Source: a virus
Lineage: Duplodnaviria; Heunggongvirae; Uroviricota; Caudoviricetes
Virus record (IMG/VR): IMGVR_UViG_2740892282_000009
DNA length: 22,170 bases
Strand: one strand, 5' to 3'
The stretch's first letter is position 1; every line of letters begins with the position of its first letter. Both the position numbers and the translations under genes were made by a program. The notes below the pieces were generated by a model. That model saw only the letters and a program-made list of their open reading frames with translations. It was not told the origin of the DNA and did no database searches. Positions 3,057-17,953 of the stretch are shown here, piece after piece.

Positions 3057-3679
3057 TATTTGTACTTCCAGTTTTGATTTTGATTAACTTGCCCTAACAG
3101 ACTAAAGTACTCATCACCTTTGTAGTAAGATTGATATACTGAGTTAGCAGCAATTAAGGTCGGCTGTCGGTCTAGCTTTTTATATACACTGTTAACGTAT
3201 ATCGTCATTTCGTTAGTTTTTTGATTTGGGTCTGCTACTGCCTGTACGTAATCAATGAATCCTGAAAACATAAGCATTGAATCGATTACAGTACTGTCAT
3301 ATGGATTCAAGATTACTAATTTGATATTCATCTGAGCATCTTTAAGAAATCCACCTAATGCAAGTGCACGTACTGATTGATTCACATTACTGACTTTGAA
3401 GTTGATAGCATCATTCGTGATGCCCTTTTGTTCTGAATAGGAAGGAAGTGAACCACTGATAATATCGGGGAAACTAATATATTGATAACCATCTAAATTG
3501 ATATCTATAAGTGAGTCTGTCCAGTGAAAACCATTTGTGCCTTTTGGAAGTACATCAAAACAAGTTACCTGTACACCCAAGCTCATTACATCCATTAGTG
3601 TTAATCGTGTTTTCGTCGTACCTTTAACTAACTTCCAGTACTTCAATAGATTGGCATTAGTAAAAACTGCATCATTCAT
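3056..3679 (-). CDS. Tail-tip / baseplate-hub-like structural protein (207 aa)
   Basis: Translationally coupled within the tail-tip gene string; no recognisable motif; assigned by synteny. Confidence 0.35.
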   Translation of the reverse strand: MNDAVFTNANLLKYWKLVKGTTKTRLTLMDVMSLGVQVTCFDVLPKGTNGFHWTDSLIDINLDGYQYISFPDIISGSLPSYSEQKGITNDAINFKVSNVNQSVRALALGGFLKDAQMNIKLVILNPYDSTVIDSMLMFSGFIDYVQAVADPNQKTNEMTIYVNSVYKKLDRQPTLIAANSVYQSYYKGDEYFSLLGQVNQNQNWKYK

Positions 3680-10568: not shown

Positions 10569-12942
<2,374 letters not shown>

Positions 12943-12956
12943 TTATTGAGATCACT

Positions 12957-13520
12957 ATGTCAGACCGCAACAATGATTTTTCTTTGCTGGTAAAGTTACT
13001 GAATAGCTTCCTAAAGAATGAAGATATAAAGAGGCGTCTGTATTCCTTCGTCAGTAATGAAACTAATGATTGGGAAAAATGGCTACAAATTGAATTTGAG
13101 CACTTCCTTAACAAAAAAAGAAAATATGAAGTTAAACGTGAAGTTACAGCTTTTCTTGACCCTAATAATTTCCCTGCAAGCAAGCTCTCAAAAATCGATA
13201 TAATAATGAGAGAAAAAGATACCCTTTTTGAAGACTATATCTTTATTGAGCTGAAATGTACTAAGCGTTCATCTGCCTTAAAAAGAGGATTGCAAGCAGA
13301 CCATTTGAAACTCAACTCTATACAAGAATGTAAGTATCCGATGCGAAATTCTTTCTGTGTTGGTTTTCATTTATATTGCTCATCATCTGTAGTTGAAGAA
13401 ATGGACAAGTATGTAACCGATACCCTTAAAGGATCTCATGCAGTATTCAAATTATGCGAATGTCCGACAAACCGTCATTGCGATTGTGCGTTAAATGAAA
13501 TAGGTGTTGTACTTTGCTAA
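12957..13520 (+). CDS. Small PD-(D/E)xK-like nuclease-fold protein with Cys-rich C-terminus (187 aa)
   Basis: Motif ...EKWLQIEFEH ... KIDIIMRE ... (16 aa) ... YIFIELKCTKR fits a D ... E-x-K nuclease core. C-terminus CECPTNRHCDC. Divergent from the TerS gene (44-bp gap). AT-rich, low GTAC count. Confidence 0.45.
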   Translation: MSDRNNDFSLLVKLLNSFLKNEDIKRRLYSFVSNETNDWEKWLQIEFEHFLNKKRKYEVKREVTAFLDPNNFPASKLSKIDIIMREKDTLFEDYIFIELKCTKRSSALKRGLQADHLKLNSIQECKYPMRNSFCVGFHLYCSSSVVEEMDKYVTDTLKGSHAVFKLCECPTNRHCDCALNEIGVVLC

Positions 13521-13699
13521 GTGCGGTGCGGGAAGCTATCTAAACTTCACACATAACTTAAAGAATCCGGTGCCGAAAACTCGCGTTCTAAGCTGGGCTG
13601 CCGGAGTACCTTAATTAGTAATTTAACTTAATTAGCTTGCTTAAAAATACTTACATTCTATTTTACATTAGCATTATTACAATGTTATATTAATAGCAC

Positions 13700-14854
13700 A
13701 TGCACATTGTAGCTCATAAAGGAATGACCAAATTGGTAAAGAATGTATATTTCGATGAATCAGGATTCACTGGTAATAACTTACTTTCAAAAGATCAGCC
13801 TTTTTTTAGTTACGCAGCAGTCGTGACTGATGATGAGGAAAGTAAACAGTTTGTTGATTATATAATAAACAAGTACTCGATCGCAGCCGAAGAGCTAAAA
13901 GGTAGCACTCTCGTAAATAGCAAGAGATTTCAACCAGCCGTAGATGAAATACTTAATCATTTCCGTGGTCGTATGCGTGTGGTTGTAAACGAAAAAAAAT
14001 ATGCCCTCTCAGGAAAATTCTTCGAATATATTTTTGAGCCAGTATTAGCAGCTAAAAGCTCAATTTTTTACAACCTTAAATTTCACCTATTCATCTCAAA
14101 TATAATGTATTTTTCTTTAATAGCTAAGGATGAATATTCAGAACTATTACATTCGCGATTTGAAGATTTTTCACGAGGTAAAATATTGGTTAATAGTTTT
14201 ATCGAACCAGTTGTTGGTTCTAAAAATTCTGAAATTATGATGGACATTCATGATTTCGCCAAGAATAACATCTCTATAATTGAAGAAGAATATGAAGGCC
14301 TTGAGGGTACTGGGATTGATAAGTGGTTATTAGATTTGACAACGACTTCTCTTTATAATCTCCTGTGCGATATGAGTAGTAAGTTTGGTACATTGAGAGC
14401 TATATGCGACAGCTCAAAACCATTAATTACTCATCAGGACTCATTCAATGAGATGATAGGCAATGATGAGATTGTGTTCGAGACTTTTCATGATAAAAAA
14501 ATCCCGATCACATTTAAGCTATCTGAGCCAATGATTCTTTCTGATTCTAAAGTCACGCATGGTATACAAATTGCGGATGTGGTAGCTGCGGCTAGCATTT
14601 ATGTCCTTAACAAGAAAAAATCGAAAGAAAAATATCATTCTAAATGGCTAAATCATTTTGAAGATGAGATTTTTTATTGGCAGTGCTGTGTTGTTCCCAC
14701 ACCAGAAAACCTTGACCCTAAAAATGTTAACAACCATTTAAATAGATATATTTTGCAAGAAATTGCAGAGCGAAGCAGAAACTCAACTCCTGTTTTAGAT
14801 GATATTGAGAAGGATATAATAAGAATTTCCAGAACATTAGCCATGCTACGTTGA
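13700..14854 (+). CDS. DUF3800-like protein (384-aa ORF; probable start at ATG 13724, 376 aa)
   Basis: N-terminal VYFDESGFTG matches the DESG-type signature I associate with DUF3800 (function unknown). AAAGGA immediately precedes ATG 13724. Followed by a strong hairpin terminator. Confidence 0.5.
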   Translation: MHIVAHKGMTKLVKNVYFDESGFTGNNLLSKDQPFFSYAAVVTDDEESKQFVDYIINKYSIAAEELKGSTLVNSKRFQPAVDEILNHFRGRMRVVVNEKKYALSGKFFEYIFEPVLAAKSSIFYNLKFHLFISNIMYFSLIAKDEYSELLHSRFEDFSRGKILVNSFIEPVVGSKNSEIMMDIHDFAKNNISIIEEEYEGLEGTGIDKWLLDLTTTSLYNLLCDMSSKFGTLRAICDSSKPLITHQDSFNEMIGNDEIVFETFHDKKIPITFKLSEPMILSDSKVTHGIQIADVVAAASIYVLNKKKSKEKYHSKWLNHFEDEIFYWQCCVVPTPENLDPKNVNNHLNRYILQEIAERSRNSTPVLDDIEKDIIRISRTLAMLR

Positions 14855-14864
14855 AATATATATT

Positions 14865-14894
14865 CTCATGCTGTTTTATCAATAACAGCATGAG
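14865..14894. terminator. Rho-independent terminator candidate (perfect 11-bp stem, 8-nt loop)
   Basis: CTCATGCTGTT-ttatcaat-AACAGCATGAG, followed by an A/T-rich tract, 11 bp after the stop at 14852-14854. Confidence 0.55.
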
Positions 14895-14936
14895 GGTATT
14901 ATATATTATTTAATTTTTCATCATGCCACATACACT

Positions 14937-15024
14937 TAATAATTTAATAATTTAATAATTTAATAATTTAATAATTTAATAATTTAATAATTTAATAATT
15001 TAATAATTTAATAATTTAATAATT
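14937..15024. repeat. Perfect tandem repeat (TAATAATT) x 11
   Basis: Eleven identical head-to-tail 8-bp units, 88 bp, no interruptions; sits between convergent gene ends (14854 and 15047). Confidence 0.95.
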
Positions 15025-15046
15025 CTATCTCTTTGATTTTTGTTTA

Positions 15047-15319
15047 TTATCTATATTGATGCATTTTTTTAATTCTTTCCTCTCGTATATGGCATGTAGT
15101 ACTGCCATTGTCCACCTGATAGATCGGATTGTAGGTGCGGCCACAATCACTCTGGAACTGAGGAAGGTAGTACTTCACCCCGTTACGTGTACCTGTATCA
15201 AACAGTACTATTATAGCTTTGTTATCAACGTTACCGACCAAGGCTTTATCCATGAATGAATGATGTACGCTGCCGCAGCCTGTGAGCAGTACTACCAACA
15301 TGACGATTAGTATTTTCAT
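15047..15319 (-). CDS. Lipoprotein (about 90 aa)
   Basis: The ORF track starts at 15355, but the likely start is ATG 15319 (AGGGA 8-9 nt upstream), giving the signal peptide MKILIVMLVVLLTGC with a lipobox (LTGC). Confidence 0.6.
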   Translation of the reverse strand: MKILIVMLVVLLTGCGSVHHSFMDKALVGNVDNKAIIVLFDTGTRNGVKYYLPQFQSDCGRTYNPIYQVDNGSTTCHIREERIKKMHQYR

Positions 15320-15329
15320 TGTTATATCC

Positions 15330-15839
15330 CTATAGAAGTTGTTCGCATTGTTCAAAGCGGATTGGCCTGTACTCTCCCTGTACTGCCCATATGCCCGACT
15401 CTCGTAAAATCCTGTGATTTCGGTTGCTGCTGACTTGTACGATCACCTTGTCGCAGTACTGCATGATGTTCTTAATGAGTACCGGGAAGATCAACCGCTC
15501 TATGTATTCCTCAGTGAACCGTCTATTTAGTCGAACTAAGTCGTAACCGTCCGTTAGCAGCGGTTCAGCAGCCATGTACCGTATGAATGGTAGATCTTCA
15601 TAGCGTGTACCTGTGCCAGTACTGAGCACGCACAACACCCCCTTTTCTTTGAACCATGCGGCTTTGCCCTGAATCATTCTTAACTGGTTCTGATAGACCA
15701 CGTGACGAATGTATTCACTTTCCTTTCCTGCCCCCATCAGTACCCGGCAACCGTTTATCAGTACACGGGTTTCCAGCTCTACGCCGAGTAACATACCGTC
15801 CAAAGACGTAATAGGAACTGCCCAATGTTCGAGTTTCAT
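15330..15839 (-). CDS. Short EAL-domain-like protein (169 aa), probably degenerate or truncated
   Basis: N-terminal WAVPITSLDGMLLGVELETRV resembles the start of EAL domains (YQPI...G.EALLRW); C-terminal CDKVIVQ...AVQGEYRPIRFEQ resembles the VAEGVE...QGY...P end. About 80 aa shorter than a canonical EAL domain. Region is higher in GC. Confidence 0.4.
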   Translation of the reverse strand: MKLEHWAVPITSLDGMLLGVELETRVLINGCRVLMGAGKESEYIRHVVYQNQLRMIQGKAAWFKEKGVLCVLSTGTGTRYEDLPFIRYMAAEPLLTDGYDLVRLNRRFTEEYIERLIFPVLIKNIMQYCDKVIVQVSSNRNHRILRESGIWAVQGEYRPIRFEQCEQLL

Positions 15840-16020
15840 GTTGATCTCTCAGTTGTCATAACTGATTGATAATTGATCTGCCTTGACTATCAGTTAACTC
15901 ATTATCGATCGGTATAGCCTTTCCTACCATTTTTAGTGGTTAGTGATTTTCACGGCTGGATCTGTGCGAAATGTGATGCAACACTGTATAAATAACCAGT
16001 ATTCATGTGGAGGGCATATC

Positions 16021-16332
16021 ATGGGCAAGAATGGTTTTGATCCGGCAATCAAACACGGGGTTCAGCAGTTTGAGCATTTAGGCCAATGGGCTAAGGTCTG
16101 CTATTGGGGATACAGTCTTGATGAGTTTTCATATGGGGATCGTGTTTTCTTCCAGAACCAGCAAGGTACATACTGGTTAGGCACGATTGAGCGTGATTGC
16201 TTCGTGTTCATACTGGAAACGCCGCTAAGTTCAGTACTGGAAGGCTTGCATTATCTGAGTACTGAGAATGCCGTCTATAAGCAGCATGAAGAAGATGGTT
16301 GGTTCTCTGGGCAGGGAGAATTACCGTTTTGA
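16021..16332 (+). CDS. Hypothetical protein (about 103 aa)
   Basis: The ORF track starts at 15943; ATG 16021 is preceded by GGAGGG. No recognisable motif. Confidence 0.35.
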   Translation: MGKNGFDPAIKHGVQQFEHLGQWAKVCYWGYSLDEFSYGDRVFFQNQQGTYWLGTIERDCFVFILETPLSSVLEGLHYLSTENAVYKQHEEDGWFSGQGELPF

Positions 16333-16432
16333 TAGCACTTCCACCAATCGCCCAAACAAACCTACCCAAATGCGAAAGGTGGAAGTACTACAATTATATC
16401 TTTTTGCATCAAAAATATAACCAAAACTTTGT

Positions 16433-17224
16433 TCATTTATCCCAAAGCGTCATAAGTTTACTCTTAATCTCATCCGTTATTGCTGAGTGATTCGACTTAT
16501 AGATGATTTTTAGTGCTTCAACGTTGTCGCCATTCTTGAATACTCTTCGCATTGAAGATGCCTTTGTTCTTGCAGTACTTTCCTTCCATTCTGGATGGTC
16601 AGTTACCATCTTTTCAACAAGATCAGTTGTGTTCATACCACTTTCAACATACTGATAGTACTCAATAAATGTCTGCATTCCTATTGTCTGTAGATCCCGG
16701 ATAGTGTTTGAATCTGGCTTCACCGTGATCTCTTCCTTTGAACGTTCAGTGTCTGGATCAATAAATTCAATGATGTCTGTTACACGTGGATCGTTAAGTA
16801 ATAAATTGCTGATTCTTAAAGTGTAACCATTCTGGTGCTCATTATAAAAACCATATTCCTTCACTAATTCATGTGGTATGGATACAGCATAACGAATTGA
16901 GAAATCATGGTTATATATTACGGCAATGAGCTCATCGAATTGGTTCAGATCATAATTTCTGATAATCCCAAGAATTAATGATTTGTTTTTTAAATTATTC
17001 TTACGAGACTTAATCTGAATTTTTCGATCATCAATCGTTGTAGCGTCATACCCTTTAGTACTAGGTGCAGCCAGTACCATTTGCATCTTATCCGCAACCA
17101 GCCATTCAGTGTACTCACTGATAGGATTGTTTCTGGTTCTGATAACCTCTCGTCGTTCTAACTCATCAAGCGTCAACTGATTCAGTTGCATCAATTCGAC
17201 GTTACTCAATTGTGATAAATCCAT
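16433..17224 (-). CDS. Hypothetical protein (263 aa), translationally coupled partner of the HNH nuclease
   Basis: Its ATG (17224-17222) abuts the stop of the upstream gene (TAA 17227-17225). Possible degenerate nuclease-like segment (GYDATTIDDRKIQIKSRK); otherwise unrecognised. Confidence 0.4.
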   Translation of the reverse strand: MDLSQLSNVELMQLNQLTLDELERREVIRTRNNPISEYTEWLVADKMQMVLAAPSTKGYDATTIDDRKIQIKSRKNNLKNKSLILGIIRNYDLNQFDELIAVIYNHDFSIRYAVSIPHELVKEYGFYNEHQNGYTLRISNLLLNDPRVTDIIEFIDPDTERSKEEITVKPDSNTIRDLQTIGMQTFIEYYQYVESGMNTTDLVEKMVTDHPEWKESTARTKASSMRRVFKNGDNVEALKIIYKSNHSAITDEIKSKLMTLWDK

Positions 17225-17953
17225 TTACTCGCTCCAAAAGGTCATTTTCTCTTTCAAGTCTGCAATTGAAAGTACTTTGCTCCCACGATGTACCATTGCA
17301 TGGCAATTTGGACATAATGGGACCATATCTGTTACGGGGTTGACCACATAGTTTTCCCCAATCGTATGAAGCGGCTTGATGTGATGTACATGAATGAATC
17401 CACGGCCATGTGTACCATAGACCTTCTCAAAATCGAAACCACAGCATTTACAGGTAGTACCGTGATGTTGGATGCAGGCTTGTCTGGCCTTTGGATCGCG
17501 TTCGTAGTAGTTCACTGTTACTTGAGTCTTTGCACCTTCAACAAAACTCTCTCCTGAAGGAATTTCATCAGGGAATGGATTAGGTAAGAAGTCTGCATAC
17601 CAAACAACGCCTTCTTTACGCAGATATCGCTTGTTTAATTTACGCTCAAAATCCTTGATAACTGCAATTTCAGGGTTATCCGGGTGTTCTGCGAAAACCA
17701 TATTGAAGGTGTAAAGTTCGTAGCCTTCATGGACTAACCTGACGTGTTCCAGTGCCTGGGTGTATCCCAGTTGTTTTTTGTTGTTTGAGTTGTACTCCCA
17801 ACGCTCTCGAAGAATGACTGACCGCTCTTGTTCACTCTCAACATCCCATGACCCAAAGATGACCATCTTCTTTTCATGGTTAACAAATGACCAACTCCAC
17901 GTCCAGTTACTGCAAGTAGCTCCGTGCGACTGGATGAATTGCTTCCGGTTCAT
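17225..17953 (-). CDS. McrA-like HNH nuclease with an unassigned N-terminal domain (242 aa)
   Basis: C-terminal HNH signature YERDPKARQACIQHHGTTCKCCGFDF...GFIHVHHIKPL...MVPLCPNCHAMVH, compared with E. coli McrA from memory. The Trp-rich N-terminal 150 aa (SNWTWSWSFVNHEKKMVIFGSWD...) may be a modified-base reader (EVE/SRA-like); this is a guess. Confidence 0.65.
   Translation of the reverse strand: MNRKQFIQSHGATCSNWTWSWSFVNHEKKMVIFGSWDVESEQERSVILRERWEYNSNNKKQLGYTQALEHVRLVHEGYELYTFNMVFAEHPDNPEIAVIKDFERKLNKRYLRKEGVVWYADFLPNPFPDEIPSGESFVEGAKTQVTVNYYERDPKARQACIQHHGTTCKCCGFDFEKVYGTHGRGFIHVHHIKPLHTIGENYVVNPVTDMVPLCPNCHAMVHRGSKVLSIADLKEKMTFWSE

Follow-up and report, generated by a model that had tools for sequence, protein, structure and literature searches.

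Genetic setting of the repeat

The window, i.e. the whole 22,170-nt stretch of DNA analysed here, is an AT-rich (38% GC), siphovirus-like prophage. Its minus strand carries the genes for a tail-tip protein, a capsid-protease fusion, a lambda-type portal, a gpA-type large terminase and a small terminase (terS, 12364–12912; phrog_57, E=6e-23). The latter gene, which is annotated in L001, forms the left border of a cargo slot. Two cargo genes follow on the plus strand. The second of them, orf187 (12957–13520), encodes a 187-aa protein without a family match; it is missing from the related loci L002 and L082, and its homologue in L084 and L085 is only 39% identical. The other is a DUF3800-family gene (13700–14854; 384 aa; Pfam PF12686, E=3e-9; phrog_12991, E=8e-119), which lies on the strand opposite to that of the phage late genes. 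Convergent to it, on the minus strand, is a lipoprotein gene (15047–15319) whose 90-aa product, starting MKILIVMLVVLLTGC, carries both a signal peptide and an LTGC lipobox.

The space between these convergent genes holds a hairpin and a perfect octamer array. The hairpin (14865–14894) has an 11-bp stem, CTCATGCTGTT/AACAGCATGAG, and a terminator-like score on both strands: only two terminator-like matches were found between 13400 and 16500, one per strand, and both fall here. It is kept in the MFE and the centroid fold of the minus-strand RNA, and L002 retains it with one compensatory pair (G-C to A-T). Its T-tracts are weak and interrupted on both sides. We predict that this hairpin is likely to act as a bidirectional intrinsic terminator common to both convergent genes; it is the hairpin, with its matches on both strands, and not the array that has the marks of such an element.

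The array itself (14936–15024) begins after a left spacer of 41 nt (14895–14935), which is invariant except for one boundary SNP in L156. A right spacer of 22 nt (15025–15046), invariant in all array-bearing loci, separates it from the lipoprotein stop codon, while the DUF3800 stop codon is 82 nt away. An earlier note on this DNA, made from the sequence alone, had placed the array downstream of both convergent genes and past the hairpin terminator of the DUF3800 gene, and the gene and hairpin coordinates agree with this. Since the interval from the lipoprotein stop codon to the hairpin is free of terminator-like sites, the array is probably contained in the 3' UTR of the lipoprotein transcript, provided that this transcript ends at the shared hairpin.

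A perfect array of A/T-only octamers

Tandem Repeats Finder reported a period of 8, 11.1 copies, 100% matches, 0 indels and a score of 178 at 14936–15024, corresponding to 11 units of TTAATAAT plus one base. With the frame moved by one base, the same array reads as 11 units of TAATAATT at 14937–15024. Both the program and the raw sequence hence bear out the perfect 11-copy tandem octamer described in the earlier note. The array is 100% A/T, with no G or C, and as 8 and 3 are coprime, each of its six frames contains stop codons.

For a chance test, the window was compared with 100 shuffles of itself, using a two-unit probe of 16 nt and allowing up to 3 mismatches. The probe matched the window 12 times, compared with 1.85 ± 1.42 matches in the shuffles, and since none of the 100 shuffles reached 12, the array is not a product of chance. 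Ten of the 12 matches were exact, all within the array; the other two, each with 3 mismatches, lay outside, at 3313 and 14905. Neither the octamer unit nor the locus was found in the searchable literature. CRISPR arrays have direct repeats of roughly 24–48 nt with unique spacers between them, and a CRISPR array was rejected here, the units being 8 nt long, contiguous and without spacers.

Copy number across related prophages

An Escherichia coli chromosome (NZ_CP123310, L001) that is 99.6% identical over the region carries 7 copies between the same flanks. The full region occurred in just one of 5426 complete RefSeq E. coli genomes, and a megablast search of the INPHARED phage records with 12900–16500 returned no match. 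The array locus is restricted to carriers of one prophage lineage, which is rare in the collection searched. Flank-only DNA patterns, together with exact-protein look-ups, added 22 orthologous loci, which come from viral contigs, metagenomes, NCBI genomes and Logan assemblies. Two true loci emerged when metagenomes were scanned with the left flank, along with three chance matches (L061, L062 and L064) that were discarded.

In the 23 other loci, the array site, with the same flanks, holds between 1 and 13 perfect copies. A single copy is present in L066, L150, L152, L154 and L155, and two copies in L059, L063, L148 and L153. Four copies were seen in L070, L075 and L151, six in L071, seven in L001, L065, L073 and L149, eight in L060, nine in L156, ten in L058 and L069, eleven in L072 and L074 as in the window, and thirteen in L068. 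Across 24 loci, every allele is an exact multiple of 8 bp, and no partial or interrupted unit was seen. The flanks of the 4–13-copy loci are nearly constant, with 0–1 differences per 1000 nt on the left and 0–4 per 800 nt on the right.

Comparing copy number across related strains, as the earlier note had proposed, therefore gives a range of 1–13, with long-read assemblies at 1, 2, 7, 7, 9 and 13. Its suggestion of a length-variable locus is upheld by these 1–13 perfect units on flanks that show 0–4 differences in 1.8 kb. That the whole-unit alleles sit on near-identical flanks also speaks for the recent slipped-strand expansion or contraction that it had put forward.

Influence of assembly on copy number

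A perfect array that is longer than k loops in a de Bruijn graph and hence collapses. In a simulated collapse by shortest traversal, the array was returned with 4 copies at k=31, 7 at k=55, 8 at k=63, 10 at k=77, 11 at k near 87 (about 83–89) and 13 at k=99. The three loci with 4 copies all come from Logan assemblies (k=31), and 7 copies are present in each of the two metaSPAdes-style contigs (k=55). Besides, the L067 scaffold has an N-gap inside the array, at about 3295–3460, and three contigs (L074, L075 and L076) end at the array. Many of the short-read copy numbers are thus probably assembler-collapsed lower bounds, and the window's own 11 copies may be one as well, if it stems from a short-read assembly. 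As many short-read values equal the collapse values, the allele spectrum is less well known than it appears.

The variation itself stands without the short-read values, because contigs of 4.6–5.2 Mb, which we took as long-read assemblies, give 1 (L155), 2 (L153), 7 (L001 and L149), 9 (L156) and 13 (L068) copies. For assembly-based comparisons in general, this is a warning: short-read assemblers break at such an array or silently collapse it in a k-dependent manner, and copy numbers of arrays of this kind should not be trusted when they come from short-read assemblies.

Origin of the array and its occurrence elsewhere

The loci fall into two sister lineages. Lineage A, whose right flank differs from the window at 0–4 of 800 positions, has 4–13 copies, while lineage B (9 loci) has 1–2 copies only and a right flank that is 4.4% diverged from 15119 onward. 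Only lineage A has therefore expanded past 2 copies; drift across a threshold for slippage could explain this, and so could selection acting in that lineage. Between these flanking regions, a tract of ~2.9 kb (about 12250–15118) is 99.6–99.9% identical between lineages A and B, as judged from L059, L063 and L066. It includes terS, orf187, the DUF3800 gene, the array site and the final 70 nt of the lipoprotein gene. Beyond its left end, in terL, the lineages are about 3–5% diverged, and beyond its right end about 5%. From these identity levels, the cargo module at ~12250–15118 appears to have been exchanged recently by recombination between the two lineages.

Even where the encoded DUF3800 protein is exactly that of the window, the array site can hold just one unit. 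In L081 and L082, whose DUF3800 proteins share about 92% identity with that of the window, the site reads CAC-TCAATCAC-TTAATAAT-TTAAC and holds one copy, and in L002, with about the same protein identity, a degenerate proto-repeat, TTAATCAA-TTAATGAT, occupies the array site. By parsimony, the single copy is ancestral and the array a young, lineage-specific expansion.

At least four exact copies of the octamer were also found in 62 viral-contig stretches, 60 of which are unrelated to this prophage. These unrelated arrays are mostly from giant-virus MAGs, with a median GC content of 26%, and reach up to 20 copies. Their occurrence in 60 unrelated AT-rich viral contigs indicates that the octamer expands readily in AT-rich DNA; the octamer array is a recurrent slippage product of such DNA and not a specific signal. 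The earlier note had held that its reading of the array would fail if copy number were invariant and if the array occurred at unrelated loci as generic AT-rich filler: the octamer array does occur at unrelated AT-rich loci, but its copy number is not invariant (1–13).

The cargo slot and its right junction

What lies between the lipoprotein gene and terS (12913–15085) varies among related prophages, in which this cargo slot has at least four alternative contents. The window carries the DUF3800 gene together with orf187, L002, L081 and L082 carry the DUF3800 gene alone, L080 and L083 have other contents, and L084 and L085 have other contents plus the orf187 homologue. In the alignment and the tblastn map, homology between DUF3800-bearing and DUF3800-free relatives ends at about 15075–15085, within the last ~10 codons of the lipoprotein gene, which marks the approximate right junction of the slot. 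The array thus lies ~55 nt inside the cargo cassette, to the left of this junction, and belongs to the tail of the DUF3800 cassette rather than to the junction itself.

With respect to the wider surroundings of this gene family, distant homologues of the window's DUF3800 protein adjoin a CRISPR array (L007) and P4-type isrK/C4 RNAs (L015), a gene neighbourhood that suggests defence-island contexts.

Predicted structure, promoters and protein binding

The helical repeat of DNA is ~10.4 bp, and bending elements phased ~10–11 bp apart give a large net bend. We estimated curvature with three dinucleotide wedge models, with parameters as in the published Bolshoy-Trifonov, De Santis and AA-wedge tables. 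The three models predict a net bend of 5–7 degrees over the 88 bp of the array, compared with 21–31 degrees for A/T-only shuffles and 113–150 degrees for phased A6 tracts. The predicted twist per unit is 277–283 degrees. Because a period of 8 bp does not keep step with the helix, the bends cancel every ~4 units, so the array is predicted to be an unusually straight segment, contrary to the curved-DNA element that had been considered for it.

A slipped hairpin or cruciform was rejected: the array is not self-complementary, and its single-stranded DNA folds worse than 200 of 200 shuffles (z = +4.6). In the centroid fold of the minus-strand RNA the array is unstructured and the terminator hairpin is preserved. 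The same holds for a promoter as a candidate, given that the two plus-strand promoter-like matches touching the array score 9/12 and the regional total (12 in 3.1 kb vs 11.8 expected) equals background; this fits the earlier statement that the array is not at a promoter location. IHF binding, likewise raised before, is not supported, since the core consensus WATCAANNNNTTR needs a C and cannot occur in an A/T-only array. On the other hand, 88 bp of pure A/T make the array a plausible candidate target for H-NS in an E. coli-type host, and such a target may have some effect on local silencing. A cos site or terminase-binding repeat was also rejected, single-copy alleles being common and copy number unconstrained.

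A probable young VNTR and its alternatives

We interpret the array as an ordinary VNTR, young, neutral and hypermutable, that arose by slipped-strand mispairing in an unconstrained 3'-3' spacer, rather than as an element with a regulatory or structural role, and assign this reading a probability of roughly 0.8. We infer the slippage mechanism, the neutrality of the array and its transcription within the lipoprotein 3' UTR from the data described above. In this view, the DUF3800 cargo cassette would already have had one TTAATAAT in its 3' tail, from which the array grew. A duplication would have produced 2 copies, and several copies would then have arisen in one sub-lineage, after which slippage may have added and removed whole 8-bp units at a far higher rate than that of point substitution. 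Because whole-unit slippage would outpace point substitution in this way, the units would stay identical. The site is presumably the only stretch here that is free of coding or signal constraint, namely the gap of 129 nt (minus the array) from the shared hairpin to the lipoprotein stop codon. The sole sure consequence of a change in copy number is a change in spacer length, and, to judge from its lack of conservation, copy number is most probably selectively neutral.

Bacterial VNTR/MLVA loci include intergenic and prophage-borne short tandem repeats, such as those used to type E. coli O157 and Salmonella. The array resembles them in having a short head-to-tail unit, copy numbers that vary between strains on conserved flanks, and alleles that differ by whole units; it is also non-coding, resides in horizontally acquired AT-rich DNA and is likely a product of replication slippage. 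However, it differs from the known loci in being confined to one rare prophage lineage. SSR phase-variation loci of Haemophilus, Neisseria, Campylobacter and Helicobacter act in one of two ways: inside an ORF they shift the reading frame, and in or upstream of a promoter they alter spacing. Like these, the array is a perfect, highly mutable SSR next to accessory, surface or defence-type genes, yet it is located 3' of both genes, and its 8-bp unit shifts no reading frame here. By this position, and with promoter-like matches at 12 vs 11.8, we rejected it as a locus of that class. With phased A-tracts and H-NS nucleation sites the array shares an extreme A/T content and AATT/TTAA steps, but its 8-bp period is off the ~10.4-bp helix, and the bend of 5–7 degrees compares with 113–150 degrees for phased tracts.

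Among the alternatives to a neutral VNTR, copy number might modulate the expression of the flanking cargo, in the manner of a tuning or contingency element. This could occur through the lipoprotein 3' UTR, whose length and AU content would change (access for RNase E or Hfq), through the distance over which convergent transcription collides, or by silencing of the AT-rich DUF3800 cassette from an H-NS nucleation site that depends on array length. The high mutability of the array is in line with this idea, as are its probable transcription, given that the only terminator-like hairpin lies beyond it as seen from the lipoprotein stop codon, its 100% A/T content inside an island of 29–36% GC, and its proximity to a candidate defence gene, a class in which variable expression could pay. 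We nevertheless consider it unlikely: the array is downstream of both genes and not in a promoter, 5' UTR or ORF as known SSR switches are, alleles with a single copy are frequent, the array is missing from relatives that have the same genes, the reliable assemblies favour no particular copy number, and the array RNA is without predicted structure and leaves the terminator fold undisturbed. That the array acts as a heritable, reversible "dial" for the prophage cargo module, by H-NS nucleation, 3' UTR stability or convergent interference, strikes us as distinctly improbable. If true, a lysogen population would contain a spread of expression states of a candidate defence nuclease or a surface lipoprotein, and SSR contingency would operate from a 3'-3' intergenic position, unlike in known bacterial SSR switches. 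The notion that the copy-number differences are assembly artefacts of a really invariant locus draws on the agreement of the 4-copy Logan loci (k=31) and the two 7-copy metaSPAdes-style contigs (k=55) with simulated collapse, on the scaffold with an N-gap in the array and on the three contigs ending there. It is very improbable in light of the 1, 2, 7, 7, 9 and 13 copies in the 4.6–5.2 Mb contigs, and of the facts that the 1–2-copy alleles (8–16 nt) are far below any k and that 9 copies fit no common k.

Two further readings tie the array to the cargo itself. According to the first, the array marks the insertion of the cargo cassette, either as a junction scar, a possibility that the earlier note had also listed, or as a recombination site. 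The slot between the lipoprotein gene and terS does vary, with at least four contents, the tract that is near-identical between lineages A and B (about 12250–15118) stops 95 nt right of the array, and an AGTACT-poor island spans 12666–15097. But the homology of cassette-free relatives ends at about 15075–15085, about 55 nt past the array, other DUF3800 cassettes already carry one unit at the same position, so that the unit belongs to the cassette tail, and nothing at the left end of the slot mirrors the array. The scar reading is thus largely refuted already, and we regard it as hardly credible. According to the second, the (UAAUAAUU)n transcript is a DUF3800-associated ncRNA that serves as partner or substrate of the RNase H-fold protein. 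DUF3800 is an RNase H-fold nuclease family that occurs in type VII retrons and as a CRISPR accessory (PMC10910872, PMC7736814, PMC12669027), and 11 unrelated RNA motifs have been described beside genes of this family, where they occur on either side and on either strand, frequently have a terminator after them and commonly contain UAA (Weinberg et al. 2017, PMC5737381). The array resembles these motifs (DUF3800-I to -XI, drum and skipping-rope) in that it adjoins a DUF3800 gene, with the stop codon 82 nt away, lies near a terminator and is UAA-rich, with two UAA per unit. It departs from them in being without a covariance-model match or conserved structure, in its variable copy number and in being missing from both close and distant DUF3800 loci. 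Rfam, DUF3800 motifs included, gave no match in 12800–16500 even at E<=1 and none in the whole window at gathering score, and no DUF3800 RNA motif was detected at gathering score in 19 DUF3800 loci. Nor did any substantial tandem array occur within 800 nt of 55 distant DUF3800 genes, a control set from a DUF3800-protein genome scan that gave only distant homologues (at most 48% identity) from unrelated bacteria. As, in addition, just 0–2 copies occur in the relatives with 92% identity and in lineage B, which has the exact protein, the array lies downstream of the DUF3800 gene's own terminator and its RNA is without predicted structure, such an ncRNA is extremely improbable.

Taken as a neutral VNTR, the array provides a high-resolution length marker for strains with this prophage, and it offers a natural series of microsatellite birth in near-identical DNA, from the proto-repeat via 1 and 2 to at least 7 copies. 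A new biological question would arise only if copy number affected the neighbouring DUF3800 nuclease or lipoprotein gene.

Further repeats and genes of the prophage

A second microsatellite was noted at 12911–12944, where two copies of ATCCTTTTT are followed by TTTTTA repeats over the ribosome-binding region of terS. Across 24 loci it has three alleles, with 36, 42 or 45 nt between the anchors, which are set apart by a single 9-mer or 6-mer and distinguish sub-lineages. As this microsatellite is located in the 44-nt divergent 5' region between the start codons of terS (12912) and orf187 (12957), it is more likely to affect expression than the octamer array is.

The commonest hexamer of the window is the palindrome AGTACT, with 76 occurrences vs 6.6 ± 2.8 in dinucleotide shuffles (e.g. 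at 712, 3106, 12665, 15098 and 22088), and the longer CAGTACTG occurs 14 times vs 0.26 expected. AGTACT is spread over all codon phases (28/14/24) and found in intergenic DNA, too, yet it is nearly absent from the cargo island at 12666–15097. Enrichment is 7–12 fold, or about ten-fold across the prophage lineage, and was also seen in L001, L002, L060, L066, L080, L082, L083 and L085; the enriched relatives include ones whose lipoprotein is only 68–87% identical. No enrichment was present in the host chromosome flank or in unrelated DUF3800 loci, and literature searches on the AGTACT excess retrieved nothing relevant. AGTACT is in these respects similar to a "highly iterated palindrome" that is peculiar to this prophage lineage, and we rate its excess as more striking than the octamer array.

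Further to the right, an HNH endonuclease gene (17225–17953, minus strand) is directly followed by a 263-aa DUF6998 ORF (16433–17224, minus strand) that matches the PADLOC mREase_II models for type II methyl-directed restriction enzymes (E=1.3e-62). From these matches and the gene order, the two may form a prophage-borne defence or exclusion pair, which could be connected with the AGTACT excess. At the opposite end, positions 1–299 of the window match, with 100% identity, the end of an IS3 element that is annotated in E. coli G3/10 (L002, 2654–2952). The tail-fibre region of the prophage is hence interrupted by IS3, and, given this match, its host is probably E. coli or a close relative.
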